64,000 nt of DNA from positions 2,091 through 66,090 of the forward strand of contig JALWYO010000033.1 in assembly GCA_026992735.1 (NCBI GenBank). The letters run 5' to 3'. Both the position numbers and the translations under genes were made by a program. Position 1 is the stretch's first letter. Every line of letters begins with the position of its first letter. This DNA comes from Deltaproteobacteria bacterium (GTDB taxonomy: Bacteria > Desulfobacterota > Dissulfuribacteria > Dissulfuribacterales > QOAL01). Positions 1 through 48,464 of this stretch are shown piece by piece. The notes beneath the pieces were generated by a model, which saw only the letters and a program-made list of their open reading frames with translations, made no database searches and had not been told where the DNA came from.

Positions 1-1048
1 CTCTCCTGGAGAGAAAGTCGGCAACCTTTACTATTCTTGCATTAGACGGAGAACTTGCAACAGAAGTATAGAGAGGCCCTTCTTCCGATGCCTTTTTGCG
101 CATGGTTGATAGATAGATCAGCAGTGCAGACAGAAATGTGCCAGCCACAGCCACTCCAGAGAGCATGATTGGCAATATGGAACCTGTGCGGTTATGCCAT
201 GCAACTCCTATGGCAGTGAATATTGCTGCATGAACTATGTTATCTCCCCAGAAATCCAGTATGCCGCCTAACCTGCTCTCCATGAATTTTATCCTGGCAA
301 TCTCTCCATCACATCCATCTACAATAGAATGCAGCAGGAAAAGAAGCGCGCCGGTTACCTGTAACAGGCCTGTTCCAAGGCTGATGCACCATGCCCCAGC
401 CAGGCCTATTAAAATACTTAAAAGAGTGATCTGGTTGGGTGTTGTCGGGGTATTTACAAGGCGGCGCGAGATGGCAAGGGATATGCGCCTTTCCACATGG
501 CGGGACATGAAGCCCTCTGTGGACTTTATAAGGGAACGGAACAGTATTTTTTCTACTCTTGCTACATTTGCATCAATGGTAAGATCAAATATCCTGCCAT
601 TTTCACATGCATTTGTTTTTTCTAACAGGTGGGTGCGCAGGAATTCCAGCAGGCTGGAATAACCGTCATGTTCAAAGGCCCTTTGCAGTTCAAAGCCCTG
701 GCCGGATGGCTTGAATATGAACAGCCCTTGAAATTCAAGAAGTTCATCTTGTTTGATTTCAACCTGGCTAAGCCATTTCAGGCATTCTATGTCCGGCAGG
801 ATGCCGGGTTTGCATACGATGCACCGGTCGATATTGGCGCAGTGCGTATCTGAATAGTTAGATGCCAGGCAACTCTTGAGGATAGGGATGGACCAAAGCT
901 CAGAATCTTCGGCAACTGTGATCAGGATCCTGTCCATTCCAGCCTTTCGGCCATGATGATACAGCCTTTCAGCAAGGGTCAGGCCGGCAACCCTCGTGGC
1001 CAGCAGGTCTTCCCTGTGGATTGCAGGGATCAGCAGCATACAGCTCAT
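1..1048 (-). CDS. CDP-alcohol phosphatidyltransferase family protein with a degenerate N-terminal nucleotidyltransferase-like domain (partial; 3' end runs off the window)
   Basis: Absent from the ORF track because it is open to the window edge. My translation of the minus strand from ATG (complement of 1046-1048) is stop-free to base 1 (349 codons). It contains the exact CDP-alcohol transferase signature D-G-x2-A-R-x8-G-x3-D-x3-D (DGEIARIKFMESRLGGILDFWGDNIVH), followed by hydrophobic helices. The N-terminus (MLLIPAIHREDLLATRVAGLTLAERL) looks like a sugar-nucleotidyltransferase fold without the GxGTR loop. Confidence 0.8.
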   Translation of the reverse strand, partial: MSCMLLIPAIHREDLLATRVAGLTLAERLYHHGRKAGMDRILITVAEDSELWSIPILKSCLASNYSDTHCANIDRCIVCKPGILPDIECLKWLSQVEIKQDELLEFQGLFIFKPSGQGFELQRAFEHDGYSSLLEFLRTHLLEKTNACENGRIFDLTIDANVARVEKILFRSLIKSTEGFMSRHVERRISLAISRRLVNTPTTPNQITLLSILIGLAGAWCISLGTGLLQVTGALLFLLHSIVDGCDGEIARIKFMESRLGGILDFWGDNIVHAAIFTAIGVAWHNRTGSILPIMLSGVAVAGTFLSALLIYLSTMRKKASEEGPLYTSVASSPSNARIVKVADFLSRR

Positions 1049-1092
1049 GGCAGGTTCCGTTTCAATAGCAAATGGCGGGGTGGGACATGCAG

Positions 1093-2127
1093 CTATGCAT
1101 TGTTGCGCCAGTCCTCTATTTTTACAGTTTGACCGCTGACACTGGATTTTTGGCAATGCAACAGCAGGTTCAGGCAGCATGCAGCCTCGGAAAAATTGCC
1201 GCCCATTAACTTCGGATTCTGCATCTCTGTAAGAAGTTCATTTATTACTGCCGTATACCAATCTGCATGATGCGAGCCATGAGAGAGGCCATGGTCAAAC
1301 GATATCCTTGATGTTCCCCTGTCATTCTCCACCAGTATATCGCTATCAAGCACCTTGATCTCTCCACGGTCACCCTTTATGAAGATGGAATTATCTCTGG
1401 TGTCTCCAGCCCATGTAAAGAACATTCTGCCAACTGAATGGCCGTAATCCAGCAGCACTTCTGCAGTATCTTCAACCTGCATATTGTGGAATTTTCTGTT
1501 TTCCAGGGTGCAGTTTACACTTTTAGGCATGCCGCCAGCCCAGGCATTTACCAGGTAGAAGGCATGCCAGCCGTGATCCACAAGGATGCCGCCTCCTGCA
1601 ATATCGGGATCAAGTCTCCAGTTTTCCGAGGCCCCTGCCTCAACTGCTACAGATGGCTGGGTCCTGATGACCCTGTATTCTATTTCCTCCGGGATGCCAA
1701 TCATCCGGTCTTTCATTATAGCTTCGACCTTTTGCAGAATAGGAGAATAACGCCAGTTATGGACAGTGACCACCGTCCTGCCGGCGGTCCTGGACGCCTT
1801 CCAGATGCTGAGAAGATCTTCCTGGCTGAGGACAAGCGGTTTTTCACACAAAACGTGCTTTCCTGAAGACAGAGACTGGAGAATAAATTCGGCATGGAAG
1901 GCGGGAGGAGTGGAAATATCTACAAAATCCACGTCTTCTTTCTGAAGCATATCCATCGCGGAGGAATAGAATCTGGAGCCAGGCAATAGAGTCCTGCACA
2001 ATTCCGCCCTGTCGGGATGGCTGTCACAGACTGCCTCTATTCTTACGGCAGGGGTTTCCAGATATGCAGGCACATGACCATTTGCTGCAATATGTCCAAA
2101 TCCTATTATTGCTCCCTTTGCAACCAT
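1093..2127 (-). CDS. Gfo/Idh/MocA family NAD(P)-dependent oxidoreductase
   Basis: 344-aa ORF. It has an N-terminal Rossmann segment (IIGFGHIAANGHVPAY) and the EKPL motif typical of the inositol/sugar dehydrogenase-like family. It lies 12 nt from the upstream gene and 44 nt from the downstream gene on the same strand. Confidence 0.85.
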   Translation of the reverse strand: MVAKGAIIGFGHIAANGHVPAYLETPAVRIEAVCDSHPDRAELCRTLLPGSRFYSSAMDMLQKEDVDFVDISTPPAFHAEFILQSLSSGKHVLCEKPLVLSQEDLLSIWKASRTAGRTVVTVHNWRYSPILQKVEAIMKDRMIGIPEEIEYRVIRTQPSVAVEAGASENWRLDPDIAGGGILVDHGWHAFYLVNAWAGGMPKSVNCTLENRKFHNMQVEDTAEVLLDYGHSVGRMFFTWAGDTRDNSIFIKGDRGEIKVLDSDILVENDRGTSRISFDHGLSHGSHHADWYTAVINELLTEMQNPKLMGGNFSEAACCLNLLLHCQKSSVSGQTVKIEDWRNNA

Positions 2128-2139
2128 ATAACAACCTTT

Positions 2140-3477
2140 TCAGACCCTGGCCTCTATGGCCAGCAGTGCGCCTTTAAGCGCCTGGAATCCCTCCATGGCT
2201 TCGTCCTCGGTGATAATCAGTGGAGGGTTTATCCTGATATTGTAGCCGTAACACATTGATATGAGGCCTCTATCCAGGCATTCATGGAAGAGCTGACGGG
2301 TCAGTTCCTTGCGGAGGGGTTCTTTTGTTTTCCTGTCAGAGACCAGTTCCACTCCGATCATGAGACCTTCTCCGCGCACGTCTCCAATGATGCCGCAATG
2401 CTCCTTCAATTCCAGCAGGCTGTTCCTGAGTATGGCCCCGATCCTACGGGAATTATCAATAAGATTTTCATTTTTGATGATTTCCAGCACTGCGCGTCCG
2501 GCTGCAGCTGCCATGGGATTCCCTCCATAGCTGGAGGAACTTCCACTGGGATTCCCGAATGGTTTTGCACTGGCTGCTTCCATGGAACTGGCCAGGGCGC
2601 TCATTGGAAAACCGCCTCCTATGCCTTTCCCCAGGGTCATCACGTCCGGGATTATACCATCCCTGTCCACACCCCAGGCACGCCCGGTACGGCCAAAGCC
2701 GGTTATCATCTCATCAGCAATAAGAAGCGCGTCAAGTTCTCTGCATAATTCCTGGACCGCGTTCATGTAGCCCTTTGGAGGAACCACATTCCCTGCTGTT
2801 CCCTGTATGGGTTCTATCAGAATGCCTGCGATATTGTGTGTTGACTGCCTTTTCAGTCCTTCCTTGAACCATTCCAGGCAGGCAAAACCGCAACCAGGGT
2901 GTTCCAGGCCGAGCCTGCATCTGTAGCAATATGCGTATGGGCCGGGCAGATAGACTCCGGGCATAAGCGGCCCCAGCCCGGCCTTGAACGAAGTGTCACC
3001 CAGCATCCCCATAACGCCACCCGTCTTGCCATGAAAGCCTCCCCAAAAGGCAGCAAATTCATATTTATGAGTAACCGATTTTGCCAGCCTGAGTGCAGCC
3101 TCAACCGCCTCTGCGCCACCGGAATACATCTGGACAGCATCAATACCTGGAGGGGTCATGGATGTCAGCAGTTTGAGAAATTCGAGCCTGTTTTCCGAGC
3201 AGAAGCTGCCGAAATTCGCCCTGGCGATCTGTTCTGAAAGGACTTTGACATAGTGTGGATGGGCATGACCGACACTGCCTACTCCGATGCCTGCAGTAAA
3301 GTCTATATAATTATTGCCATCCAGGTCTGTTACACGGACACCACGGGCCTTTTTTATAACGAGCCTTGAAAAAAGTGCTATGGACTGGAGACCGGGCGCC
3401 ATGAATTTGCTTTCTTCCTCAAATACAGCGCTGGAAACAGGGCCAGGCACCTTGTATTTTCCGCCAATATTTTTCAT
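2140..3477 (-). CDS. class-III (omega-type) PLP-dependent aminotransferase
   Basis: 445-aa ORF with class-III hallmarks: GGAEAVEAALRLA, ADEMITGFGRTG and the PLP-lysine context DVMTLGKGIGGG. Confidence 0.9.
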   Translation of the reverse strand: MKNIGGKYKVPGPVSSAVFEEESKFMAPGLQSIALFSRLVIKKARGVRVTDLDGNNYIDFTAGIGVGSVGHAHPHYVKVLSEQIARANFGSFCSENRLEFLKLLTSMTPPGIDAVQMYSGGAEAVEAALRLAKSVTHKYEFAAFWGGFHGKTGGVMGMLGDTSFKAGLGPLMPGVYLPGPYAYCYRCRLGLEHPGCGFACLEWFKEGLKRQSTHNIAGILIEPIQGTAGNVVPPKGYMNAVQELCRELDALLIADEMITGFGRTGRAWGVDRDGIIPDVMTLGKGIGGGFPMSALASSMEAASAKPFGNPSGSSSSYGGNPMAAAAGRAVLEIIKNENLIDNSRRIGAILRNSLLELKEHCGIIGDVRGEGLMIGVELVSDRKTKEPLRKELTRQLFHECLDRGLISMCYGYNIRINPPLIITEDEAMEGFQALKGALLAIEARV

Positions 3478-3495
3478 AAATGCCAGATGCTCCTT

Positions 3496-4413
3496 TCAAG
3501 TTATGCCAGGCACAGCGGAATCGTCTGAAAGCCCGGATATGCTTTTTGCGCCTGATTTTGAATGCATGGAAGCTCCAAGACATTTTGCGAGCTTTGTCTT
3601 GATAAGCCGGGCAATAAAGCCTGCGGCCTCCTCTCTGTAAAGGGCAAAACTGGGCCATGCGTTTATGTCAATTATAAATATCCGTCCGTCATTATTTACA
3701 ATGGCATCGCCGCCATAGATATCAAGTCCCATTATATCCCCGGCTTTCATGCAGCTTATCATGAGTTCATCTGCTGAAAAATCATGGTATTGCAGATCCT
3801 GATCACGGTGATAAAACCACTTGAACCACCAGGTATGACCGGCTTGGCAATCCCTGATGCAGTAAAATTTTATTATATCTCCAGGCACGTGTTCCTGTAT
3901 GAGCACGGTGCCTATGTCCCGGGAAGCAAACCCATTCAGGGCATTTTGGGCTGACTGAATATCTCTGACAAACACAACGTCGTCTCTGTCTATCGCGTGA
4001 TAATCGCCTCTTTTCAGCCAGCATGGGACATGGATACTGGGCAGTGCATCTGATATGGAATGGATTGATGTCGCAGGGAAAAAAACCTGGTTTTTCAAGG
4101 CCGCAACCATGTTCTTTCGAAAGGTATTTTCTACAGCTTCAACAGTATTGACCAGCAGGCATCCGGTATTTTCAGCCATCTCCCTGAGCCTGGCAAGATA
4201 AGGCGCTTCTTCGCACATAAAGAATATCAGTGCAGGCTGTATGTCAAAATGGGCCTCGAGAAATTCCTCTGGAGAAAGCAAGCAGACGTCTATGCTGCCA
4301 GAGGAGGCAAGCTTTCTGGCAGTTTCTCTGAGAATTGCCTCGTCGTCGTATTCTCTTTCCGGTGAGTGTGATCTTTCCCGGAATATGGCGATAGTGGATA
4401 TATTATTCATCAA
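3496..4413 (-). CDS. ATP-grasp domain protein (carboxylate-amine ligase or kinase type)
   Basis: 305-aa ORF. The C-terminal half shows ATP-grasp-like segments (GTVLIQEHVPGDIIKFY; DGRIFIIDINAWPSF). It is the first gene of the four-gene minus-strand cluster, 18 nt upstream of the aminotransferase. Confidence 0.7.
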   Translation of the reverse strand: MMNNISTIAIFRERSHSPEREYDDEAILRETARKLASSGSIDVCLLSPEEFLEAHFDIQPALIFFMCEEAPYLARLREMAENTGCLLVNTVEAVENTFRKNMVAALKNQVFFPATSIHSISDALPSIHVPCWLKRGDYHAIDRDDVVFVRDIQSAQNALNGFASRDIGTVLIQEHVPGDIIKFYCIRDCQAGHTWWFKWFYHRDQDLQYHDFSADELMISCMKAGDIMGLDIYGGDAIVNNDGRIFIIDINAWPSFALYREEAAGFIARLIKTKLAKCLGASMHSKSGAKSISGLSDDSAVPGIT

Positions 4414-4748
4414 TAGTATTTTTTACTGCTTCAGGCAGATATTAAGGGCTCACCAGCAAAGATTCTAATGCCAGGCAGTACGGCAGCCTATTAAGTTTAT
4501 TCCTGTAGTGATGATCAAAACTCAAACGGAATTATATACTATGTGTCGGGTATCAAGAGAAGTTTTTTCTACTTTCTTCCCGGGGAGGTTTCATGCTGTT
4601 TACAGGAGCGCAGAAGTGATGGGGATGGACCGAAGGTCTATTCTTTGAATGTCAATTGCCTGACAATACAACAATACGGTGCCTGGCAGGCAAAGGCGAA
4701 ATTTTTCAAAAAGCGGGGAGTCGGGGAAGGCAGGACTCGAATCGGATA

Positions 4749-5033
4749 TCAGATATTGGGAAAGCGTTTTTTGAGGTGAAGCCGGGCAAATTTATCTGCA
4801 TGTGCACTGTTGACCCTTATCCATCTTTTGCCTTGGAGACACCACCACTGTTTCCCGTCAAAGCGTGCTACAAGCGCCCCGTGATAATGCATCATGAGCT
4901 TTATCTCCTCCTTGGAGTATTGAGGGACATAGCTGCCTTTTACCTTGGTGTCTTTGCAGCCGGAAAGCAGTACAAGACAGCCCAGCAACAGGCACAGACA
5001 GGCGCAATTTTTTAAGCTTTTAAGCCTTTGCAT
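4749..5033 (-). CDS. small predicted lipoprotein, unknown family
   Basis: 94-aa ORF with a signal peptide and lipobox (LLLGCLVLLSGCKD). There is no clear Shine-Dalgarno sequence and I recognise no family. Confidence 0.5.
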   Translation of the reverse strand: MQRLKSLKNCACLCLLLGCLVLLSGCKDTKVKGSYVPQYSKEEIKLMMHYHGALVARFDGKQWWCLQGKRWIRVNSAHADKFARLHLKKRFPNI

Positions 5034-5461
5034 AAGAATATCATAGTTTATTTTTTTGTAATGTCAATGCCAACAGATGGAGTTTGCCCATTGCATTCCT
5101 CGGCGCCACAGAGAGCATTGGAGCATTGCCTGCTAACAAGGTATCATGAAAATAACAGCAACTGGTACTATATGTTGTGGTTGTTTGAGTTAAGCAGATA
5201 CCCCGGTAGCTGAATTGTAAACCTAAACGTAATATAAAATTTTGCGTCTTGATTGAATATCCCGATATTAAATTACAGGTTATCTGCTCATAACAAAAAA
5301 CTGAAAAAAAGTACTTGAGTCTTTTAAAGAATTAGGTAGACTTAAATTATCTTCATAATTTATAGTCTCAAGTCGTTATTAAACCATAAACATTGGCGTC
5401 TGATTTTTTTCAAGATGCTGAAGAATAAAGAGATAAAAACAACATAAAGGAGGTTTTTTTC

Positions 5462-6193
5462 ATGAGGGTTTTGATGCTAACAGGGTTAATTTTATCTTTT
5501 TTTGTCGTGGGTTGCGCCGGGCCGGCGGTACAGGTGGATGACCAGCTACATGCTACCAGGGCGGTTCTTAATGATGCCAAGGCAAATAAACTGGACAAGA
5601 AATGTCCCAAGGCATACAAACAGGCAGAGGATCTTCAGAACAGGGCAGTTGCACTGTACAGAAGGTGCAAGTGTGCTAATGCCATGGGCCCTGCCCAGGA
5701 GGCATACAAGCAGGCCAAGTCGCTTTGTCCACCTGTTCCCTGTCCTGCAGCATGCAAGAAACCTGCTCCGCCAAAAGACAGTGATGGTGACGGTGTAATC
5801 GATTCCGAAGACAGGTGCCCTAACACTCCAAGGGGAGCAAAGGTTAACAAGGTTGGCTGCTGGATTATCAAGGGCCTTCTTTTTGACTTTAACAAGGCTG
5901 ATATCAAGCCACAGTATTACAAGAACCTCGATGAGGCCATAAAGGTCCTTAAAGAGAACCCAGGCATGAAGGTTGAAATCCAGGGACATACCGACAACAT
6001 TGGTTCTGCAGGATACAACCTTGAGTTGTCCAAGAAGAGGGCGCAGGCTGTAGCAAATTACCTGATAGCTCATGGTATTGCAGCAAGCAGGCTCGTAGTC
6101 AAGGGTTACGGTTTCAGCAGGCCGGTAGCTCCAAATGATACACCTGAAGGCCGGGCCTTAAACAGAAGGGTACAGCTCAAACCTATAAGATAG
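5462..6193 (+). CDS. OmpA-family lipoprotein (TSP type-3 repeat plus OmpA C-terminal peptidoglycan-binding domain)
   Basis: 243-aa ORF with AGGAGG upstream of the ATG. It has a lipoprotein signal (LSFFVVGCAG), a thrombospondin type-3 repeat (DSDGDGVIDSEDRCPNTP) and an OmpA_C region (GHTDNIGSAGYNLELSKKRAQAV). Confidence 0.85.
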   Translation: MRVLMLTGLILSFFVVGCAGPAVQVDDQLHATRAVLNDAKANKLDKKCPKAYKQAEDLQNRAVALYRRCKCANAMGPAQEAYKQAKSLCPPVPCPAACKKPAPPKDSDGDGVIDSEDRCPNTPRGAKVNKVGCWIIKGLLFDFNKADIKPQYYKNLDEAIKVLKENPGMKVEIQGHTDNIGSAGYNLELSKKRAQAVANYLIAHGIAASRLVVKGYGFSRPVAPNDTPEGRALNRRVQLKPIR

Positions 6194-6253
6194 CTATATT
6201 GAGATAGTTGTATTGCGCTAAAAAATAGTCAGCCAATATCTACGAGGCTGCCC

Positions 6254-6296
6254 AGCGGCTGCCGGTCCACTACTTGGGCCGCAGCCGTTTTTTTTT
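6254..6296 (+). terminator. rho-independent terminator after the OmpA-family gene
   Basis: Stem CGGCTGC (6256-6262) pairs with GCAGCCG (6281-6287), followed by a run of nine T (6288-6296). Confidence 0.6.
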
Positions 6297-6570
6297 GCAA
6301 GATATCCAGTAATTTCTCAATAGGTGTGTGCAAATTCCCCTGTATCTGCTTACAGGAGGACTCAGATAAGCGCAGACTTCGTACGCAGATAAAAGACAAA
6401 GAAAATCTTGGCGCTTCTGTGTTTGTTTGTGTTCAAACTTGTAATTTGCAGACTTTTTGAGAAATTACAATATCCATGCTTAACTATGCGAATATTTAAG
6501 ATAAACAGAGAAAATCCACGGTTGTCAGACCTTTCTATATGCATTCGTAGCAGATTAACCACTTATTTAA

Positions 6571-6599
6571 TTGACAAACCATGCCTGAAAATTTAGTTA
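6571..6599 (+). promoter_or_regulatory. candidate sigma-70 promoter for the Hdr-like operon
   Basis: Perfect -35 TTGACA (6571-6576), a 17-nt spacer, then TAGTTA (6594-6599). This implies a leader of about 200 nt. The -10 match is weak. Confidence 0.3.
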
Positions 6600-6804
6600 T
6601 TACCTTGTTGAATACAGGGTTGAAAATACCGTATTTGACAGTAAGTTGCAGATTCTGATTTTGTCCCAAGGATGCAGGACTATGCAGCGTAGGCAAGGAT
6701 GCTGTGATGCCGTGTGCGCTGATACCTGAAATTAATCCGGGACCGCAGGCCCACCGTGGCCTGTATGCAGGTTTATCGTGAATAAATTATTGAGGATTGC
6801 GGGC

Positions 6805-8058
6805 ATGCAGGAAAACAATATAGACCTTGAAAAGATCAGGGCGGGTGTCAAGAAAAAGATAGAGCAGGCCGTTCCTGAAGCCAATATCAACTATTGTCTG
6901 ACATGCGGGCTATGCGCAAGCGGCTGTCCTGCTACAGGCCTGGATGATATGGATCCCAGGAAATTTCTCAGGATGTTGGTGCTTGGGCAGGACGAGGAGA
7001 TCCTGAATACCGACTGGATCTATGCCTGTACCATGTGCCAGAGATGCCGTTATGCCTGTCCCATGGGCATAGATGTAGGTAGAATAGTATATGAAATCAG
7101 GGGGATGCGGCCTCGAGAAAAGCGTCCAAAGAACCTGCAGCGCTCCTGCGACTTGCAGAGGCAGAATAACAGTACAGGTATTCCTAATGAGGATTTTGTC
7201 TGGGTAGTGGGAGACGTGCTGGAAGAGGTCAGGGAGAACGAGCCCGAGTGGAAGGACCTCCAGGCTCCTATAGATAAGAAGGGTGCAAAATATTACCTTA
7301 ACCAGAATGCCAAGGAACCGACAGTGGAGCCGGAGGAGATGGTCCCTCTCTGGAAGATACTACATGCTGCAGATATTGACTGGACCTATTCCTCCGAATG
7401 GTGGGACGGTGCCAACTATTGCCTGTTCACCGGCGATCCTGGAGACTGGGAATACACTGTGCGCAAACAGGCAGAGGTGGTGGATTCCCTTGGGTGCCGA
7501 TATTACATAAATACGGAGTGAGGCCACATGTTCTATGCGACCCTGGAAGGGTTGCGCCGCTTCAACATTCAGCACAAGTTTGAGTTTGTCAGTATTATCA
7601 GCCTCTATGCCCAGTGGATCAGGGAAGGCAGGCTCAAGGTGGATTCATCATGGAACAGGGAAGGCCTTAAGTTCACTGTTCAGGATCCCTGCAAGCTCGT
7701 GAGACAGGGTCTTGGCGATGTTGTGGCTGAAGACCTGCGTTTTGTGGTCAAAAAGGTAGCTGGTGAGGAAAATTTCGTTGACGTATGGCCCAGGCTGTCG
7801 AATAACTATTGCTGTGGCGGCGGTGGCGGCGCCCTGCAGGCCGGTTTCGTGGAAAACAGGCGGAAGTACGGCAAGTTGAAGTTTGATCAGCTGGCGGCAA
7901 CTGGAGCGGATGTGGTAATCACACCATGCCACAATTGTCATAGCCAGGTCCTGGATATATGTGATTTCTACGGAGGCAGGTGGAAGACCACTCACCTGTG
8001 GAACTGGCTTGCAAATGCGCTGGTCATGGATGATTCGGCGACAGGTAGGGAAGGATAG
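6805..8058 (+). CDS. HdrD/GlpC-like Fe-S oxidoreductase (two [4Fe-4S] motifs plus CCG domains), probably a selenoprotein read through UGA 7519-7521
   Basis: Track ORFs 6778..7521 and 7528..8058 are in the same frame and are separated only by TGA plus 6 nt. The N-terminal part has CLTCGLCASGCP and CTMCQRCRYACP. The C-terminal part has a complete CCG domain (C-x39-CCG-x36-CxxC). The start is set at ATG 6805 (GAGGA 8 nt upstream) rather than GTG 6778. Alternative reading: two separate genes, since GAGG lies 4 nt before ATG 7528. Confidence 0.6.
7537..7555 (+). other. candidate bacterial SECIS hairpin
   Basis: GCGACCC-UGGAA-GGGUUGC forms a 7-bp stem (one G-U pair) with a 5-nt G-containing loop. 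It starts 15 nt after the in-frame UGA. Confidence 0.45.
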
Positions 8059-8061
8059 GAT

Positions 8062-11000
8062 ATGAGTACCCCAAAAGGTTCTGTGCTTGTTGTAGGAGGT
8101 GGAATTGCTGGTGTCCAGGCAGCTCTGGACTTGGCGGACAGCGGGTTCTATGTTCACCTGGTAGAGAAAAGCGCGGCCATTGGAGGAAGCATGTCACAGT
8201 TGGATAAGACGTTTCCCACCAATGACTGTTCTGCCTGTATACTTTCGCCAAAGCTGGTTGAGTGCGGAAGGCATCTTAATATAAATCTTCTTACCCTTTC
8301 CGAAGTTTTGTCTGTAGATGGTGAAGAGGGCGATTTTCAAGTAAGAGTGCGGCAGAATCCCAGGTATGTTGATCCTGAAAAGTGTATTGCATGCGGTAGC
8401 TGCGCTGAAAAATGTCCCAAGAAGGTGCCCAACGAATTTGACATGGGCCTTGGCAAGAGAAAGGCCATATATCTCAGATATCCCCAGGCAGTTCCCTTGA
8501 AATATGCCATTGATCCCGATCACTGCATATATCTTAAAAAGCCGGGCAGGTGCGGCTTCTGTGAAAAGGTCTGCCCTGCGGACGCCATAAATTTCAAGGA
8601 TCAACCCAAAGAACATCTGCTCAATGTGGGTTCTGTCATACTTGCGCTTGGTTTCAAGCCCTTTGATCCATCCGGGCTGGATTTTACAGGCTATGGAAAC
8701 TTGAAGAACGTGGTTACCAGTATGGAGTTTGAGAGGCTTCTCAGCCCTTCAGGCCCATGCCAGGGCCACATGGAAAGGCCTTCGGATCACCAGGAGCCGA
8801 AGAAGATCGCCTGGCTCCAGTGTGTCGGGTCCAGGGATATCAACAGGGCCTGTCATGGCTATTGTTCGTCTGTATGCTGCATGTACGCCATAAAACAGGC
8901 GGTGATCGCAAGAGAGCATTCTTCCAGCGGTGCTGTTGATGCAACGGTCTTCTATATGGATATGCGGACTCATGGCAAGGGCTTTGAGGCCTATTATGAC
9001 AGGGCCAGGGAAGAGGGAATTAAATTTCACAGGGCCAGGGTCCATACGGTCTCACCTGCTGAAAATGACAACCTGAAGGTTCGTTATGCAGGAGAGAATG
9101 GGGACATAAGAGAGGATGAGTTCGATTTGGTAGTCCTTTCCGTAGGCCTTGCGACAGATCCGCAGGTCATCAAGCTTGCCAACGACCTGGGCATAGAGCT
9201 GGATTCAGACAGCTTTGCCAGGACAACATGCCTCAGGCCCGTAGAGACCAGCAGGAACGGCGTGTTCGTATGCGGGGCCTTGGCAGAGCCCAAGGATATC
9301 CCCCAGTCTGTCATGGAGGCCAGTGCTGCAGCCCTTGAAGCAGAGCGGATACTCTATCCTTCCAGGTGGACTGAAACAAAGGAAAAACATTTCCCCAAGG
9401 AAAGAGACGTACATGCAGAGCCGCCGCGTATAGGTGTCTTTGTATGTTCCTGCGGGATAAACATAGCCGGAGTGGTAGATGTCCAGGCAGTGACGGATTA
9501 TGCCTGGAAATTGCCAGGCGTGGTATTTGCCCAGAACAACCTGTTTACCTGTTCGCAGGATACCATCAATCAAATGGCAGAGACCATCAAGAGAGAACGG
9601 CTGAACAGGGTGGTCGTGGCTTCATGCACACCCAGGACCCATGAGCCACTGTTTCAGGAAACATTGCGCGAGGCCGGTATCAACAAGTACCTGTTTGAGA
9701 TGGCCAACATCAGGGATCAGGATTCATGGGTGCATCAGCGGCAGCCTGAGGCAGCCACTGAGAAGGCCAAGGACCTGGTGAGGATGGCTGTGGCAAAGGT
9801 AAGGGGAGATGATCCCCTACCGTACAATACCGTGCCTGTTATAAAATCCGCCATGGTCATTGGTTCTGGCGTGGCAGGCTTGACGGCAGCGCTTTCCCTG
9901 GCAGACCAGGGCTTTCCTGTGACTCTTGTGGAAAGGAAGGACAGGCTTGGCGGGCATGCGCACAAGTTTTTCAGGACATGGCAGGGGCAGGAGATGCAGC
10001 CCTATCTGAGTGAGCTGGTGTCCATGGTTGAGGCCAGTGATCTGATAGATGTGCATCTGGGCACCACGGTCCAGGATGTCTCAGGTTCAGTTGGCCAGTT
10101 TACCAGTATCTTGACGGATGGTACCGAGGTGAAACATGGTGTGGCCATCGTTGCCGTTGGCGCCGAATCGTTCAAGCCCAGAGAAGGCAGGTGGAATTAC
10201 CTCTATGGCAAGAATCCCAATGTTCATACGCTCCTGGAACTGGACCAGAGATTTATAAAGGATGATCCGGGCTTAAAGGGCCTTAACCAGGCGGTCTTTA
10301 TCCATTGTGTCGGCTCAAGGGTGCCTGAGCGTCCTTACTGCAGCAGGGTATGCTGCACCCATGCAATAGACCAGGCCCTGCACCTGAAAGAAATGAATCC
10401 GGACATGGATATCTTCATGCTCTACAGGGATATCCGCACCTATGGCAAGAGAGAGCATCTATATCAGGAGGCAAGGGCCAAGGGCATAATTTTCATCCGC
10501 TATGACCTGGAAAACCTTCCCAGAGTCTCGGAAGAGAACGGCAGCATGGTAGTCAAGGTCAGGGACCCGATAATCGATGCCAGCGTGACGCTTCATCCTG
10601 ACCTGCTGATATTGGCCTCTGCGGTGCGGCCCAGGGATGATGTCGGAGGCCTCTCCAAGCTGTTCAAGTGCGCCATGACCGGAGACGGTTTCCTGCTGGA
10701 GGCCCACATGAAGCTGCGCCCTGTGGATTTCGCCACGGACGGCGTTTACCTGGCAGGCCTGTGTCATTATCCAAAGCCGGTGGAGGAGACTATAGCCCAG
10801 GCAAAGGCCGCTGCTTCCAGGGCGGGCCTGGTCCTCTCCAGGGATGCGGTTCCGGCAGAAAGCATAACTGCGGTTGTGAACCTTCAAAAGTGTACCGGTT
10901 GTGCAGTATGTGCCAGGGTCTGTGCCTATCATGCGGTAAATATGGACGAGAACAGCGGCAAGGCACAGGTTGACACCGGGCTATGCAAGGGCTGTGGAGC

Positions 11001-11097
11001 ATGTGTGGCAGGTTGCCGTTCCGATGCAATAACATTAAAGAACCTTGGAAATGAACAGATAATGGCTGCAGTGGAAGCGGCCATGGAAGATTTTTAG
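8062..11097 (+). CDS. hdrA: HdrA-family FAD/Fe-S protein, tandem double-HdrA fusion
   Basis: 1011-aa ORF. It has two FAD Rossmann motifs (VVGGGIAGVQAA; VIGSGVAGLTAA), two CSxVCC motifs (GYCSSVCCMYAIKQA; PYCSRVCCTHAIDQA) and several ferredoxin CxxCxxCxxxCP motifs. It starts 3 nt after the preceding gene. Confidence 0.9.
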   Translation: MSTPKGSVLVVGGGIAGVQAALDLADSGFYVHLVEKSAAIGGSMSQLDKTFPTNDCSACILSPKLVECGRHLNINLLTLSEVLSVDGEEGDFQVRVRQNPRYVDPEKCIACGSCAEKCPKKVPNEFDMGLGKRKAIYLRYPQAVPLKYAIDPDHCIYLKKPGRCGFCEKVCPADAINFKDQPKEHLLNVGSVILALGFKPFDPSGLDFTGYGNLKNVVTSMEFERLLSPSGPCQGHMERPSDHQEPKKIAWLQCVGSRDINRACHGYCSSVCCMYAIKQAVIAREHSSSGAVDATVFYMDMRTHGKGFEAYYDRAREEGIKFHRARVHTVSPAENDNLKVRYAGENGDIREDEFDLVVLSVGLATDPQVIKLANDLGIELDSDSFARTTCLRPVETSRNGVFVCGALAEPKDIPQSVMEASAAALEAERILYPSRWTETKEKHFPKERDVHAEPPRIGVFVCSCGINIAGVVDVQAVTDYAWKLPGVVFAQNNLFTCSQDTINQMAETIKRERLNRVVVASCTPRTHEPLFQETLREAGINKYLFEMANIRDQDSWVHQRQPEAATEKAKDLVRMAVAKVRGDDPLPYNTVPVIKSAMVIGSGVAGLTAALSLADQGFPVTLVERKDRLGGHAHKFFRTWQGQEMQPYLSELVSMVEASDLIDVHLGTTVQDVSGSVGQFTSILTDGTEVKHGVAIVAVGAESFKPREGRWNYLYGKNPNVHTLLELDQRFIKDDPGLKGLNQAVFIHCVGSRVPERPYCSRVCCTHAIDQALHLKEMNPDMDIFMLYRDIRTYGKREHLYQEARAKGIIFIRYDLENLPRVSEENGSMVVKVRDPIIDASVTLHPDLLILASAVRPRDDVGGLSKLFKCAMTGDGFLLEAHMKLRPVDFATDGVYLAGLCHYPKPVEETIAQAKAAASRAGLVLSRDAVPAESITAVVNLQKCTGCAVCARVCAYHAVNMDENSGKAQVDTGLCKGCGACVAGCRSDAITLKNLGNEQIMAAVEAAMEDF

Positions 11098-11112
11098 GCA
11101 AAGGCGCAGACT

Positions 11113-11553
11113 ATGAATGATATATCAAAAAGCAAGGGGGCGTGGGAGCCCAAGATCATCGCCTTTCTCTGCAACTGGTGCAGCTATGCCGGTGCTGACC
11201 TGGCCGGGGTGAGCAGATATCAGTATCCCCCGTCTATCAGGATAGTCCGTGTTCCCTGTTCAGGCCGGGTAAGTCCTAACCTGATACTGGATGCGCTCCG
11301 TTCAGGTGCTGACGGCGTGCTGGTTTCAGGCTGTCATCCCGGGGACTGTCACTATATCAGCGGCAACTACTATGCCAGGAGGCGTTTTGCCCTGCTCAAG
11401 AGATTTCTGGAATTTGTAGGGGTGGAGCCTGACAGGGTGAACTTTACCTGGATTTCTGCATCAGAAGGTGAGCAGTTTGCGCAGGTTGCTACAGAGGTGA
11501 CAGAGCGTGTGAGAAAACTCGGCCCGGCAACACATCTGTTAAAGGAATTTTGA
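11113..11553 (+). CDS. mvhD: MvhD/FlpD-like [2Fe-2S] protein (methyl-viologen-reducing hydrogenase delta-subunit family)
   Basis: 146-aa ORF. The motifs KIIAFLCNWCSYAGADLAG ... RVPCSGRV ... VSGCHPGDCHY are characteristic of MvhD. Confidence 0.9.
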   Translation: MNDISKSKGAWEPKIIAFLCNWCSYAGADLAGVSRYQYPPSIRIVRVPCSGRVSPNLILDALRSGADGVLVSGCHPGDCHYISGNYYARRRFALLKRFLEFVGVEPDRVNFTWISASEGEQFAQVATEVTERVRKLGPATHLLKEF

Positions 11554-11555
11554 TC

Positions 11556-12599
11556 ATGTCCACTGTAAATGAAAAGATAACCTCTGAAATCAGGGAAAAG
11601 GTCCGCGAGCTGCTGGCATCAGGTCATGTGGCAGCCTTTTTGGGCTATACCTCCGGTTCAGTCCCTATGGTCATGCAGCCTCTGATCATCAGGACCCCGG
11701 AGGATGCTGACAGGCTTGAGTGGAACAGTTTTTGTGTTCTGAACCTTGCCAACTATCTGCCTGCACTACTCAAGAGTTTTGAGCCACCCAGGCGCCCGGG
11801 CGATCCTCCTCCAGAGGGTCCTCTTCCAAAGGTTGGGGTCCTGGCAACAGGCTGCTGGTCAAGAAACATGGTAATTCAGGTCCAGGAAAACCAGGTGGAC
11901 AGGGACCGTGTTGTGGTCGTGGGTATTTCCAGCAGGGGCATGGTTGACAGGAAAAAGGTGCTTGCAGCAGTAGGTCACAGGGATGTAACTGCTGTTTACG
12001 AGTATGATCATAGCCTTAAGGTTTCAGGGCCTGGTTATGAGCGGGAGATAAACCGCTGGGATGTTGTAAGAGATAACTGCCGGACCTGTGTCCATCCTGA
12101 TCCTGTTATATTTGATCACATGATAGGTGATCTCAAGGGTGAGAGGGATGTCGCTGACCGTTTCAGGCAGGTGGAAGATATCGAGGTCCTTGCTCCAGAG
12201 GATAGATGGAGCTGGTTCTCCACTGAAATTGCTTCCTGCATAAGGTGTTACGCATGCAGGAATGCATGTCCTCTCTGCTATTGCCCCACATGTTTTGTGG
12301 ATGATTCCAGGCCGCAATGGGTTGGCAAGAGTATAGACAAGGCGGACACAGCCATTTTCCATATACTGAGGGCTTACCACTGTGCAGGCCGCTGTACTGA
12401 TTGCGGCTCCTGTGAAAGCGCATGTCCCATGGGGATAAAGATGAGAATCCTGACCAGGAAACTCCAGAAGGATGTCCTTGAACTCTATGGCGCAGAGGCA
12501 GGTATGGATATGCAGAGTCCTCCACCTCTTAGTACTTACAAGATGGACGATCCACAGGATTTTATCCTGACAGAATCTATCAAGGGTGAAGAAAAGTGA
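11556..12599 (+). CDS. 4Fe-4S dicluster protein (Hdr-associated electron-transfer subunit)
   Basis: ORF track 11550..12599 begins at TTG; I prefer ATG 11556. Cluster motifs are CIRCYACRNACPLCYCPTCF and CTDCGSCESACPMG. The stop overlaps the next start (GTGA). Confidence 0.75.
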   Translation: MSTVNEKITSEIREKVRELLASGHVAAFLGYTSGSVPMVMQPLIIRTPEDADRLEWNSFCVLNLANYLPALLKSFEPPRRPGDPPPEGPLPKVGVLATGCWSRNMVIQVQENQVDRDRVVVVGISSRGMVDRKKVLAAVGHRDVTAVYEYDHSLKVSGPGYEREINRWDVVRDNCRTCVHPDPVIFDHMIGDLKGERDVADRFRQVEDIEVLAPEDRWSWFSTEIASCIRCYACRNACPLCYCPTCFVDDSRPQWVGKSIDKADTAIFHILRAYHCAGRCTDCGSCESACPMGIKMRILTRKLQKDVLELYGAEAGMDMQSPPPLSTYKMDDPQDFILTESIKGEEK

Positions 12600-13624
12600 A
12601 GGTTTTGATCCTCGACAAGGCAGGTTTTCAGGACTGGCTTAGGGCGCTTGCCGGTGAGTTTGATATAATTGGTCCGGCTGAAAATACAAAGGGCCTGCTG
12701 GATTGGAATAAGCTGGAGCCAGGTGAATTACCGGATTTCAGGCCCGGCCTGCCCAAAAGTTCCATAAAGACGTTTTTCTTTCCGCAGCCGGAGACACTTC
12801 TGGAATTTTCTGCGAGGCCAGGAGATGATCAGGCCTTCAGGCCGCATGAACCATCTGAAGGCAGAAGAGCAAGGCTTTTGGCAGGTGTCAGGCCCTGTGA
12901 TGCAAGGAGCGTGGCCCTGAACTCTATGCCTTATGCCAGTGATCCTTACTTTCTTAAAAACAGGGAGAACGTGGCCATGGTAGGCCTTGCATGCACTCAG
13001 GGCTGTTCCACCTGTTTTTGTACGTGGACAGGGGGATCTCCTGTGGGTTCAGATGGCATGGATGTAATGGCGTATCCATTGGGAGATGCCTTTGCTCTTG
13101 AGCCAGTTACCGGCAGGGGCAAAGACATGCTTCTTAAAGCCTCGTCTGCAAGGGAGGCTGCCCAGGAAGATCTGGCTGCCCTGGATGCATTAAAGGCCTC
13201 AGCTCCGTCTTCCCTGCCCGATGCCATGGACCCTGCATCGGTTCTCAGGGAAAAAGAATTGATGTCATTGTACAATGCATCTTTCTGGCAAGGGCTTTCC
13301 GAATCCTGCCTGAACTGTGGCACATGCACATTCCTCTGTCCCACCTGCTACTGCTTTGATATCCAGGACGAGACCCTGAAGGGAAAGGGCCGCAGGATCC
13401 GCTACTGGGATTCCTGCATGTTTCCTCTTTTTACCCTCCATGCATCAGGGCACAATCCCAGGGGTGAGAAGGTCAAGAGGGTCAGGAACCGGTTCATGCA
13501 CAAACTGAAATATTTTCCCGATCGTTTCGGTCCGCTCTCATGCGTTGGATGCGGGCGCTGTGTAAGGGACTGCCCGGTAAACATAGACATAAGACAGGTC
13601 ATGAAAGATCTTCTTGCAATCTGA
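12596..13624 (+). CDS. AsrA / sulfhydrogenase-beta-like 4Fe-4S protein
   Basis: 342-aa ORF with a GTG start. Motifs CLNCGTCTFLCPTCYCFD ... YWDSCMF ... CVGCGRCVRDCPVNIDI match the anaerobic sulfite reductase subunit A / HydB-type family. Confidence 0.8.
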   Translation: MKVLILDKAGFQDWLRALAGEFDIIGPAENTKGLLDWNKLEPGELPDFRPGLPKSSIKTFFFPQPETLLEFSARPGDDQAFRPHEPSEGRRARLLAGVRPCDARSVALNSMPYASDPYFLKNRENVAMVGLACTQGCSTCFCTWTGGSPVGSDGMDVMAYPLGDAFALEPVTGRGKDMLLKASSAREAAQEDLAALDALKASAPSSLPDAMDPASVLREKELMSLYNASFWQGLSESCLNCGTCTFLCPTCYCFDIQDETLKGKGRRIRYWDSCMFPLFTLHASGHNPRGEKVKRVRNRFMHKLKYFPDRFGPLSCVGCGRCVRDCPVNIDIRQVMKDLLAI

Positions 13625-41093: not shown

Positions 41094-42506
41094 TTAAATA
41101 TCATAGTAGAGATAGAACTCATAAGGATGTGGGCGGAGTTTTACCGCATTTACTTCATTCTCGGTCTTGTATTCCAGCCACATGTCGATGACATCCTGTG
41201 TAAAGACGCCACCCTTCAGCAGGAATTCGTGGTCTTCCCTGAGGGCATCCAGCGCCTCGTCGAGAGAGCCGGGAGCAGAAGGAATGTTGGCCAGTTCTTC
41301 AGGTGGCAGATCATAGATGTTCTTGTTCAGGGGTTCGCCTGGATCTATCTTGTTGTCAATGCCGTCTATGACTGCCATGAGCATGGCGGAGAAGGCCAGA
41401 TATCCGTTGCAGGATGGATCAGGTGTGCGGAATTCTATCCTTTTGGCCTTTGGAGATGCGGAATACATTGGCAGCCTGATGGCGGCACTCCTGTTCCTGG
41501 TCGAATATGCAAGGTTTACAGGTGCCTCAAATCCTGGAACCAGCCTCTTGTAGGAATTTGTAGACGGGTTGGTGAAGGCACAGAGGGCGCGGCAGTGCTT
41601 CAGTATGCCGCCTATGGCATACATGGCCATCTCAGACATTCCACCATGCTTGTCTCCGGCAAACATGGGCTGGCCGTCCTTCCAGATGCTGATGTGTGTG
41701 TGCATGCCTGTGCCGTTGTCGCCGTAGAGGGGCTTGGGCATGAAGGTCAGGGTCATGCCGTGTTTTACTGCAATGTTCTTAAGGACGTACTTGAACCACA
41801 TGAGCTGGTCGCCCATCTGGAGGAGTGGCTTGAATCTCATGTCGATTTCTGCCTGGCCTGCAGTTGCAACTTCATGGTGCTGGCACTCCGTGTCGATTCC
41901 CAGTGCCTCCAGGGTGAGAAGCATCTCTGTGCGGATGTCCTGAAGCTTGTCTGTTGGTGGAACCGGGAAGTAACCTTCTTTGTGGCGTGGCTTGTAGCCG
42001 AGGTTCGGGCATTCATCCCTTCCGGAGTTCCAGATGCCCTCAATGGAATCCACCTCGTAGAAGCATCCATTTGATGCGTTGTCAAAGCGGATATCGTCAA
42101 AGATGAAGAATTCTGCCTCAGGGCCGAAAAAGGCCGTATCTCCATAGCCGGTGCCCTTGAGGTATGTTTCTGCCTTCTTGGCTATGTTTCTTGGATCCCT
42201 GCTGTATGCTTCTCTTGTTACAGGGTCAACGATATCCCCGATGAGGACCAGGGTAGGCTCTTCGAAAAAGGGATCTACCTGTGCCGTTGATGCGTCCGGG
42301 ACAACCAGCATGTCGCTTGCGTGAATGGGCTGCCATCCCCTGATGCTTGAGCCGTCAAATCCGAAACCATCCTCGAAAGAACCTTCGTTGAGCTCGGTTG
42401 AAGGCACGGTAAAGTGCTGCCATACTCCTGGAAAGTCCAGAAACCGCAGGTCAACAACCTTGATGTCTTTTTCCTTGATGTAGTCCAATACTTCCTTCGG
42501 GGTCAT
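41094..42506 (-). CDS. glnA: glutamine synthetase, type I
   Basis: 470-aa ORF with AAGGAGG upstream. It contains FDGSSIRGW, the [13 protein letters not shown] region and the adenylylation-loop region NLYDLP-like NIYDLPPEE. Confidence 0.95.
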
Positions 42507-42584
42507 AAGAAAAATCCTCCTTTGGTCTTTAAATTGATTTCATCCTTTTTATCATAAAGGAACAAAAAAAACACTTCATTTTCT

Positions 42585-45164: not shown

Positions 45165-45246
45165 ATGTGTTTGCCATTAATTGCTGCGTGCTAAAACCCA
45201 TGTTTTATGGATGACAAGACAACACATGCATCACGTTAAAGCAGGG

Positions 45247-45588
<342 letters not shown>

Positions 45589-45597
45589 TTACCTCCG

Positions 45598-46815: not shown

Positions 46816-46840
46816 AAATTTTTTCCTCTATATTCCCATA

Positions 46841-48070: not shown

Positions 48071-48116
48071 GTTTACCTCCTGTAACAAAAAACTTTTGTG
48101 AAAATCGTGAATATTA

Positions 48117-48132
48117 AGCAATGGCCGTGCCA
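48117..48132 (-). promoter_or_regulatory. sigma-54 (-24/-12) promoter of the amt-amtB-glnK(-glnD-glnA) operon
   Basis: The minus strand reads TGGCAC-GGCCA-TTGCT, an exact match to the TGGCAC-N5-TTGCW consensus. It lies about 47 nt upstream of the amt ATG. Confidence 0.65.
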
Positions 48133-48464
48133 TGAAGTTTTGACGATATAACATGTTGATATTAAAAGATAGTATCGCGGGACTCGCAATAACCTACCTT
48201 CTGTTGTTTACTATTTTGTAAAATTTGACATTGGAAATTACATTTTTGTCATATGGGTAATTTTTGCTGGGCCGGTGACGATGTTAATGCTTATCGGCGT
48301 TTATGCTGCAGTATCTTGTGAAGCCATTGACATAAGTCAATGAGTTTATATCGACCATGCTGAATAATTATCCTGGATTGAACTTCATATTTTAGCTGAA
48401 GACACAACGGGAACAGACGGATGGCAGGGAATAAAAAGCAGTAAATTCAGGAGAAATACGGACC

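Follow-up and report, generated by a model that had tools for sequence, protein, structure and literature searches.

The stretch of DNA analysed here (the window) comprises 64,000 nucleotides from a deltaproteobacterium of the order Dissulfuribacterales (GenBank assembly GCA_026992735.1, contig JALWYO010000033.1, positions 2,091 to 66,090). It opens with four minus-strand genes, which encode an ATP-grasp protein, a class-III aminotransferase, a Gfo/Idh/MocA dehydrogenase and a CDP-alcohol phosphotransferase. We found that these genes are a genuine operon and the core of a widespread, uncharacterised cassette, which is a variant of the CDP-alcohol/inositol head-group pathways. Our best explanation, held at a little short of even confidence, is that this cassette makes a modified, aminated inositol-phosphate head group of an envelope lipid.

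Bacterial inositol lipids were long thought to be rare. The transferase family described here has relatives in at least 566 species-level genomes, and in major environmental phyla its gene and that of inositol-phosphate synthase belong to one conserved cassette. If the explanation is true, an aminated inositol phosphate would be a new head group (calculated mass about 259 Da for inosamine phosphate versus 260 Da for inositol phosphate) and the ATP-grasp fold would gain a new role in bacteria. It would also offer a first way into the function of HpnL, HpnM and HpnA.

The four genes and the wider cassette

The ATP-grasp gene (3496..4413, minus strand) is a complete open reading frame (ORF) of 305 amino acids from TTG, called as 304 amino acids from the next ATG. 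It is followed on the same strand by complete ORFs for the aminotransferase (2140..3477, 445 amino acids), with an AAAGGAG ribosome-binding site on its 5' side, and the dehydrogenase (1093..2127, 344 amino acids), and then by the transferase gene (2..1048), which is cut by the window edge. An initial annotation of this DNA had given gaps of 18, 12 and 44 nt and a fourth reading frame that leaves the window but translates cleanly. The gaps were reproduced from the coordinates, and the last frame was stop-free over 349 codons and reached 392 codons as a whole gene (L001:11080-12258). For sequence beyond the window we used contig JALVZL010000052.1 (GCA_027037655.1), matched by exact protein and numbered L001 among our loci. 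All four ORFs are full length and retain the motifs of their families. The 3' neighbours of the transferase gene, xseB and a 5-formyltetrahydrofolate cyclo-ligase gene, are convergent with it, and the unit therefore ends at the transferase gene. The arrangement is well beyond chance, with the same order repeated in many phyla.

More than 1800 proteins of the collection searched are related to the transferase, and the family matches at least 566 stretches in a second collection, which holds one genome per species. Co-occurrence was examined in the 80 best-scoring species-representative loci, drawn from at least eight phyla, chosen by the transferase relative alone and taken with up to 8 kb of flank. 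Partner genes were found by phmmer/jackhmmer on six-frame ORFs, with annotated neighbours as queries. The initial annotation had held that its proposal would fall if the genes did not co-occur elsewhere; we found the ATP-grasp, aminotransferase and dehydrogenase genes all within 8 kb of the transferase gene in 47 of the 80 loci, and at least one of the three in 61. The order ATP-grasp, aminotransferase, dehydrogenase, transferase is kept in Thermodesulfobacteriota, Nitrospirota, NC10, Rokubacteria, Acidobacteriota, Verrucomicrobiota, Elusimicrobia and a Chlamydiota metagenome-assembled genome (MAG). The trio lies on the opposite strand beside the transferase gene in Alphaproteobacteria and a Chloroflexi MAG, rearranged and still linked. 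Co-occurrence, conserved order and the gene fusions described below show that the four genes are a functional unit.

The full cassette adds genes for an HpnL-like flippase, a HAD phosphatase, an IPCT-like cytidylyltransferase and myo-inositol-1-phosphate synthase (MIPS). The nucleotidyltransferase (NTP) gene was present in 57 of the 80 loci, the HpnL-like (LPG_synthase_TM) gene in 52, the MIPS gene in 48 and the HAD gene in 41, and all eight families were together in 19. A MIPS gene immediately follows the transferase gene in related loci, and the separate nucleotidyltransferase has the IPCT half of IPCT/DIPPS as its top NCBIfam match (61 bits versus 580). Annotated examples are L088 (a 4.46-Mb contig), L089 (a 1.78-Mb contig), L090 (Ca. 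Methylomirabilis lanthanidiphila) and L091 (the Chlamydiota MAG). On the contig that encodes P0238, an ATP-grasp homologue fused to a nucleotidyltransferase domain, the order is LPG_synthase_TM, HAD, the fused NTP::ATP-grasp gene, aminotransferase, dehydrogenase, transferase and MIPS. The initial annotation had seen a route in the four genes by themselves. Their unity was borne out, whereas the operon proved to be only half of the system, to which the HpnL-like, HAD, NTP and MIPS genes belong in other genomes; these four are missing from this contig.

Reduced forms of the cassette were also observed. Six Acidobacteriota loci carry the HpnL-like, HAD, ATP-grasp and transferase genes without the aminotransferase and dehydrogenase genes; locus L048 has HpnL-like, HAD, NTP, ATP-grasp, transferase and MIPS genes, again without these two; and marine Nitrospinota have the HpnL-like and transferase genes alone.

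A second system adjoins the cassette in NC10/Rokubacteria (L058:11308-13714, L039:1263-3166, L054/L057:2972-5999). In L058 a nucleotidyltransferase domain with an intact GxGxR loop is fused to a CDP-alcohol transferase, and in L039, L054 and L057 the two matches are adjacent. L054, L057 and L058 have a second HpnL-like gene next to the pair. The NC10 and Rokubacteria organisms concerned may thus make two different products derived from CDP-cyclitols.

The CDP-alcohol phosphotransferase

The transferase belongs to PF01066 (CDP-OH_P_transf) at 46.1 bits, against a cut-off of 22. Its catalytic signature D1xxD2GxxAR...GxxxD3xxxD4 lies at 242..319 on the minus strand as DGCDGEIARIKFMESRLGGILDFWGD, where all eight residues were found by direct reading and by a regex scan. 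The scan gave this one occurrence in the 64-kb window, and the eight residues are invariant in 25 of 25 diverse family members aligned. The perfect D-G-x2-A-R-x8-G-x3-D-x3-D motif described in the initial annotation is thus present.

Every NCBIfam match of the transferase lies below its equivalog cut-off. The best was the DIPPS half of IPCT/DIPPS (NF041135), at 91.5 bits versus 580 and over profile positions 201-358 of 419 only, followed by archaetidylinositol-phosphate synthase (AIPS) at 57 bits and PIP synthase (PIPS; NF045883) at 42.6 bits versus 170. Housekeeping models scored lower, with 23.4 bits versus 109 for PgsA (TIGR00560) and 16.8 versus 200 for archaetidylserine synthase. A sequence search of the PDB returned AF2299 (E=4e-23) and IPCT-DIPPS (E=4e-16). 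The transferase sits in the inositol-phosphate/AF2299/DIPPS clade and not with PgsA/PssA, a grouping that the initial annotation had named as a reason to abandon its proposal. Some sources do label relatives 'phosphatidylglycerophosphate synthase', as would be expected of an ordinary PgsA/PssA enzyme standing beside unrelated metabolic genes. This idea is ruled out, with hardly a doubt left, by the scores, the two-domain AF2299 architecture, the linkage across phyla and the fusions.

The AlphaFold model of the transferase (pLDDT 87.8) has a juxtamembrane helix (177-194) and six long helices that are predicted to span the membrane, and it superposes over its full length on AF2299 (Foldseek TM 0.64/0.73) and IPCT-DIPPS. 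Its N-domain alone matches RmlA-type nucleotidyltransferases in Foldseek. There the glycine-rich GxGxR loop is missing and replaced by MLLIPAIHRE…, and G, R and P are the sole invariant residues among 25 diverse relatives. Sequence and model support an IPCT-DIPPS-like architecture with a dead N-domain, in agreement with the degenerate nucleotidyltransferase-like domain and the IPCT-DIPPS resemblance pointed out in the initial annotation. We looked for an active N-domain in cassettes that have no separate NTP gene, and it was degenerate there as well.

AF2299 of Archaeoglobus fulgidus (PDB 4O6M/4O6N/4Q7C), the top match in both sequence and fold, has the same build of an inactive cytidylyltransferase-like N-domain, a juxtamembrane helix and six transmembrane (TM) helices. 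From the juxtamembrane helix to the signature (…LHSIIDGCDGEIARLKFMES…) the two sequences are near-identical. AF2299 was crystallised with CDP and CDP-glycerol, and its physiological role is not established. Two differences stand out: the family here is bacterial and lies inside an eight-gene cassette, and the profile alignment to AF2299, DIPPS and PIPS ends after TM3, so that the donor side is common and the acceptor side family-specific. On its donor side the transferase is closer to AF2299/DIPPS than to PIPS. The acceptor half reads TMRxK…GPLYTSV…ADFLSRRDFIYLVVILA, and the Arg-Arg pair at the start of TM5 is invariant in the 25-member alignment.

IPCT/DIPPS, the enzyme of di-myo-inositol-phosphate (DIP) synthesis in hyperthermophiles (PDB 4MND), likewise fuses a nucleotidyltransferase-like domain to a CDP-alcohol transferase. 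It is the top NCBIfam match for both the transferase and the separate cytidylyltransferase, and its pathway depends on MIPS and CDP-inositol and finishes with a phosphatase. The differences are that both matches are far below the cut-off of 580 bits, that the GxGxR loop is missing from the fused N-domain, with the active cytidylyltransferase encoded separately, that the cassette adds ATP-grasp, aminotransferase, dehydrogenase and HpnL-like genes, and that its hosts are not hyperthermophiles.

A putative route to an aminated cyclitol

The polyol can be named as inositol because MIPS and the IPCT-like cytidylyltransferase share the cassette in most other genomes; the top matches of the transferase (DIPPS, AIPS and PIPS) give a further link to inositol. 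From these sequence relationships, the alcohol would be inositol-derived. An aminopentanetetrol (APT) head group, as in Thermodesulfobacterium and Aquificales, was considered and dropped once MIPS and the IPCT-like gene proved to be cassette members; a literature search on APT biosynthesis found nothing.

The dehydrogenase is an NAD(P)-dependent member of the Gfo/Idh/MocA family, as judged from its sequence. It matches PF01408 (76.8 bits) and the C-terminal domains PF22725 (63.4 bits) and PF02894 (53.6 bits), and it carries a GFGHIA Rossmann loop and an EKP motif (LCEKPL, residues 93-98). The top named NCBIfam model is inositol 2-dehydrogenase IolG (TIGR04380), at 74.6 bits and far under the cut-off of 355. 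The aminotransferase is of class III (omega-type), matching PF00202 (Aminotran_3) over residues 39-438 with E=4.6e-97, and has the PLP-lysine motif TLGK at residues 281-284. It reaches no NCBIfam equivalog, and its best PDB relatives are GABA-AT-like enzymes, dialkylglycine decarboxylase and racemases. For the dehydrogenase the PDB holds no close characterised relative.

In hygromycin A/streptomycin-type inosamine formation, MIPS, a phosphatase, a Gfo/Idh/MocA inositol dehydrogenase and an aminotransferase lead from inositol to inosose and inosamine. The same four enzyme types occur in the cassette and would follow the same logic. Two differences from these actinomycete aminocyclitol pathways are that no orthology is seen at the sequence level, with IolG at 75 bits versus 355, and that the product here would feed a membrane transferase and not an antibiotic.

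The ATP-grasp protein has no Pfam family above cut-off. Its AlphaFold (AF2) model (pLDDT 91.6) matches many ATP-grasp structures with a Foldseek probability of 1.0. The residues G-G-D…D-x-N of its Mg-site motif, GGDAIV...IIDINAWPSF, are conserved in the family, and in a local profile match IIDINAWPSF aligns with the Mg site VIDINAFPGY of ITPK1. Ins134_P3_kin (PF05770) is the commonest weak Pfam match, found in 15 of 30 members and scoring 12.8 bits in the window protein against a cut-off of 23; YheCD, RimK and TTL are other weak matches in the family.

The family numbers 1263 members in a profile search of 1.84 billion representatives. Among the best 150 of these, we found at least seven fusions of the nucleotidyltransferase to ATP-grasp (in addition to P0238, found earlier), one HAD::NTP::ATP-grasp fusion and one fusion of ATP-grasp to the whole transferase, and no fusion to the aminotransferase or dehydrogenase. 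ATP-grasp is also retained in cassettes without those two enzymes. Given these fusions and this persistence, the protein probably belongs to the activation-and-transfer arm of the pathway rather than acting after amination. The D-x-N Mg site with its ITPK1 match, the weak Ins134_P3_kin matches and the resemblance to heptose activation described below point the same way. We favour a kinase about twice as strongly as a ligase, and the fold data do not decide between them. Of the two roles proposed in the initial annotation, phosphorylation or acylation of the new amine, phosphorylation as such is therefore preferred, in the form of a kinase-type role in activation, and acylation fits less well with the fusions and the variant cassettes.

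Six loci that lack the aminotransferase and dehydrogenase genes (L044, L049, L052, L055, L082 and L084) show consistent changes in two otherwise invariant ATP-grasp motifs, with WxKRGDxH becoming WxKQAxEHK and WFYHRDQ becoming WFYPKEH. This suggests a subfamily with a different substrate.

Heptose activation relies on a kinase (HldE/HddA), the HAD phosphatase GmhB and a nucleotidyltransferase (HldE/HddC), which move the phosphate and then make the NDP-alcohol. The HAD::NTP::ATP-grasp fusion mirrors this triad of ADP/GDP-heptose activation, and weak NCBIfam matches relate the cassette HAD to GmhB and the cassette NTP to HddC. The difference is that the heptose-pathway kinase is not an ATP-grasp enzyme and its substrate is a heptose.

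The gene families, the conserved linkage with its fusions and the clade of the transferase are observations; the chemistry beyond family assignment we infer from them, including the amination itself and the choice of a lipid over a solute. In a Kennedy-type route, MIPS would provide inositol-1-phosphate (step 1). The dehydrogenase would oxidise one ring hydroxyl and the aminotransferase would convert the ketone to an amine, giving an inosamine-type cyclitol (step 2). ATP-grasp, as a putative cyclitol or cyclitol-phosphate kinase, would set the position of the phosphate for activation together with the HAD phosphatase, as in the ADP/GDP-heptose logic (step 3), and the cytidylyltransferase would then make the CDP-cyclitol (step 4). 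The membrane transferase would pass the phospho-cyclitol to an envelope molecule bearing a hydroxyl group; diacylglycerol would be the simplest acceptor, and a hopanoid polyol is a possible one (step 5). Finally, HpnL would flip the product, and MlaC/MlaA/MMPL-type proteins would move it outward (step 6).

The modified cyclitol is in this scheme the CDP-activated donor, whereas the initial annotation had placed a modified, aminated alcohol as the acceptor from such a donor. We retain the modified alcohol as a conditional proposal and consider that transfer probably runs the other way, with the cyclitol itself activated by the separate cytidylyltransferase. On the donor side, AF2299 and DIPPS, which take soluble CDP-alcohols (PMC4634129), have a near-identical juxtamembrane helix and TM1-3.

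A more specific version is possible and, in our estimate, doubtful. It holds that the product is a hitherto undescribed lipid class with a phospho-aminocyclitol (inosamine-phosphate) head group, made on diacylglycerol or a hopanoid polyol by a CDP-cyclitol (Kennedy-type) route, with the first bacterial ATP-grasp cyclitol(-phosphate) kinase and flipping by HpnL. If true, this would assign a function to HpnL and perhaps to HpnA and HpnM, and a new biomarker of broad phylogenetic range would be expected in Acidobacteriota, Nitrospirota, NC10, Rokubacteria, Verrucomicrobiota, Alphaproteobacteria and Thermodesulfobacteriota.

As the initial annotation had supposed, the literature searched yielded no characterised pathway with this enzyme set, and no paper linking the set, inosamine lipids, or MIPS/CDP-alcohol transferases with hopanoid genes.

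Rival products and the locus in this organism

Several points weigh against an aminated inositol-phosphate lipid. The 80 loci are the best-scoring subset of at least 566, and their frequencies may not hold family-wide. Close characterised relatives are lacking for the dehydrogenase and aminotransferase, which leaves both the substrate and the amination to be read from the classic pairing of the two enzymes. AF2299 and DIPPS do not process lipids, and a six-TM architecture is described as typical of enzymes with soluble acceptors (PMC4634129); by this analogy, the build would favour a soluble product or a phosphorylated soluble acceptor. The top Foldseek matches of the ATP-grasp protein mix VanA/Ddl, LysX and RimK with ITPK1 and PPIP5K2, leaving kinase and ligase unseparated, and its best full-length profile match is the graspetide ligase PsnB. 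In this organism, moreover, no MIPS, cytidylyltransferase, HAD or HpnL gene was found on the contig within 64 kb on one side of the operon and about 20 kb on the other.

The PsnB match, together with Foldseek TM values of 0.60-0.69 to VanA/Ddl, LysX and RimK and the weak Pfam matches to YheCD, RimK and TTL, agrees with a somewhat unlikely alternative in which ATP-grasp is an amide or ester ligase. Such an enzyme would put an amino acid or other carboxylate on the aminated inositol head group, and the cationic aminoacyl-cyclitol lipid, a tRNA-independent analogue of lysyl-phosphatidylglycerol, would be flipped by the MprF-like HpnL. Most characterised ATP-grasp enzymes are ligases, the ATP-grasp, aminotransferase and dehydrogenase genes are kept together in that order, and the HpnL partner is related to the flippase part of MprF (preprint 10.1101/2025.07.29.667474). 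However, a ligase acting on the new amine is hard to reconcile with cassettes that keep ATP-grasp without the aminotransferase and dehydrogenase, and with fusions seen only to the cytidylyltransferase, HAD or transferase and never to the aminotransferase. The Mg site is also D-x-N as in ITPK1-type kinases, versus E-x-N in the aligned ligases.

An envelope lipid is more likely the product than a solute. The membrane partner found in 52 of the 80 loci matches PF03706 (LPG_synthase_TM, the MprF flippase region), with HpnL (TIGR03476) as the top match in every case tested and once above cut-off. MlaC/HpnM, MlaA, HpnN-like MMPL or MacB neighbours occur in several phyla, and MacA/MacB/OEP genes follow the cassette in several Acidobacteriota loci. 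Such neighbours fit a cytoplasmic solute poorly.

A soluble, possibly aminated di-inositol-phosphate-like phosphodiester, serving as an osmolyte or stress solute, is nevertheless suggested by the resemblance of MIPS, the IPCT-like NTP, the DIPPS-like transferase and the HAD phosphatase to the DIP pathway. MIPS, IPCT and a DIPPS-type transferase would build it in DIP style on a phosphorylated acceptor, with a phosphatase to follow. The transferase is closest to the soluble-product enzymes AF2299/DIPPS and has six TM helices as they do (PMC4634129), and its invariant Arg-Arg at TM5 might hold the phosphate of the acceptor. We consider this product quite unlikely: besides the membrane and trafficking neighbours, the acceptor-pocket half of the transferase does not align with AF2299/DIPPS, the carriers are mostly soil, groundwater and sediment lineages and not hyperthermophiles, and a similar backbone in Bacteroides tracks with inositol lipids (PMC9246714).

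That backbone is the 'alternative inositol lipid cluster' of Bacteroides vulgatus/Prevotella, for which Heaver et al. 2022 (PMC9246714) describe an unconfirmed Kennedy-like CDP-inositol lipid route in species that make inositol lipids. It contains NTP, CDP-alcohol transferase, HAD and MIPS genes with an LPG-synthase homologue nearby. In contrast to the cassette, it has no ATP-grasp, aminotransferase or dehydrogenase, and the word 'aminotransferase' occurs 0 times in that paper. The same quartet of families is clustered in most of our related loci and absent from the window and contig, as compared by gene family. Neither the ATP-grasp/aminotransferase/dehydrogenase insert nor the hopanoid link was found in the literature searched.

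In Ca. Methylomirabilis lanthanidiphila, convergent genes for MlaC-like, HpnN-like MMPL, DUF309, acyl-CoA-synthetase-like and glycerophosphodiester-phosphodiesterase proteins follow the cassette (L090:12581-19742); together these may serve as a module that traffics and turns over the product.

The cassette resembles MprF (lysyl-phosphatidylglycerol synthase/flippase) and the HpnL/HpnM/HpnN proteins in having a partner with PF03706 and HpnL as top match, and in the recurrence of MlaC/HpnM and MMPL/HpnN-like genes. It differs from MprF in that the partner is without the aminoacyl-tRNA-dependent synthase domain, and none of the MprF, HpnL, HpnM or HpnN genes is in the window. Two recent studies, one of them a preprint (10.1101/2025.07.29.667474), describe HpnL, HpnM and HpnA as hopanoid-associated and of unknown function, and neither mentions inositol, CDP-alcohol transferases or ATP-grasp genes. 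Our literature search found no paper holding both 'myo-inositol-1-phosphate synthase' and 'hopanoid'.

These associations raise the question of whether the cassette decorates hopanoids, either with a phospho-(amino)inositol on the bacteriohopanepolyol side chain or by action of the dehydrogenase and aminotransferase on the polyol, with HpnL, HpnM, MlaA and HpnN moving the conjugate to the outer membrane. In the Desulfobacterales relative L011/L093, HpnA (504 bits, cut-off 368), HpnL (307, cut-off 196) and HpnM (164, cut-off 160) lie upstream of the cassette, together with MlaA and a protein of the PNP_UDP_1 family, which we take to include HpnG. HpnN-like MMPL genes occur in 18 of the 80 loci, MlaC in 9 and MlaA in 9; in about 20 Acidobacteriota loci the cassette comes directly after IspH and DXS; and L088 has SQS_PSY and a B12 radical-SAM gene close by. 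The idea would also provide roles for HpnL, HpnM and HpnA, which still have no known function. Yet neither the loci examined nor the window showed a squalene-hopene cyclase (shc) gene, the above-cut-off matches come from one relative whereas most HpnL-like neighbours elsewhere are under the HpnL cut-off, and a phospho-inositol hopanoid was not found in the literature searched. We know of no such compound. A hopanoid conjugate is therefore rather unlikely, and the association may mean that or only shared trafficking rather than shared chemistry.

At the locus in the window, the contig holds the four-gene core only. The 20 kb past the operon, through the ClC neighbour, contain KdtA, LpxK, a PKD protein and ribosomal genes, and outside the operon the genes of the 64-kb window are of housekeeping type (an Hdr-like cluster, EF-G, Nuo, GlnA/GlnD/AmtB, LeuRS and UbiD). 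The ClC protein shares 69% identity with its counterpart in Dissulfuribacter thermophilus (phylum Thermodesulfobacteriota), a rough pointer to the kind of organism. Of the proposed route, this locus would supply no more than step 2, the kinase part of step 3 and step 5; either the genome carries the remaining functions at other sites or the pathway is not complete. The four genes could be a remnant or have been put to another use after the rest of the cassette was lost. The lack of MIPS, NTP, HAD and HpnL nearby agrees with this, as do syntenic Desulfobacterales relatives, which keep the HpnL-HpnM-HAD-NTP module directly upstream of the core (L011/L093) or 7 kb away on the other strand (L095). 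Against such a loss, all four ORFs are full length with their family motifs, and three of the four closest relative loci (L008, L009 and L010, at 54-63% identity) likewise have the core without partners immediately upstream, from which it follows that the split between core and partners is old and stable. The 91-kb contig is also a small part of the genome, and there is in our view only a slim chance that the genes are a remnant. The closest relative locus, L007 (68% identity), is too short to show presence or absence of the partners.

Upstream of the ATP-grasp gene by 335 nt, a 94-amino-acid ORF with a lipoprotein-type signal peptide (…LLSGC) lies at 4749..5033 on the minus strand. It is called as a gene on four contigs and has no Pfam match. 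It was seen only on this organism's own contigs, with no homologue adjoining the cassette in any other locus examined, and for this reason it is probably not part of the system. Just upstream of it, a sigma-70-like promoter match (TTGACA-16-TATGAT, 11 of 12 positions; 5040..5067, minus) is a possible start of the transcription unit and a lead only, given that promoter-like and terminator sites in the region are no more numerous than in shuffles. No RNA element or riboswitch in the 5' region matched Rfam at E<=0.1 in 1..7000. Divergent from the 94-amino-acid ORF, at 5462..6193 (plus strand), lies the gene for a lipoprotein of the OmpA family whose linker is Cys-rich, thrombospondin-like and Asp-rich.

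Among the other neighbours, a lipid kinase with DAGK_cat and DAGK_acc domains (eukaryote-type diacylglycerol-kinase-like) is conserved 3-4 kb downstream of the operon in this organism (L001:15879-16922) and in a Desulfobacterales relative (L095:14538-15587). The Hdr-like cluster (6778..13624, plus strand) encodes HdrC/B-like Fer4 and CCG proteins (6778..8058), an HdrA-like flavoprotein of 1011 amino acids (8062..11097), an FlpD/MvhD-like protein and more Fer4 proteins; such clusters typify sulfate- or sulfur-metabolising Thermodesulfobacteriota, and this one is unrelated to the operon. A nitrogen-regulation block (41094..48154, minus strand) comprises genes for glutamine synthetase (41094..42506), the uridylyltransferase GlnD (42585..45164) and an ammonium transporter (46841..48154). 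A protein of 450 amino acids encoded at 61311..62663 (minus strand) has DUF6880 as its sole match (E=2.5e-48).

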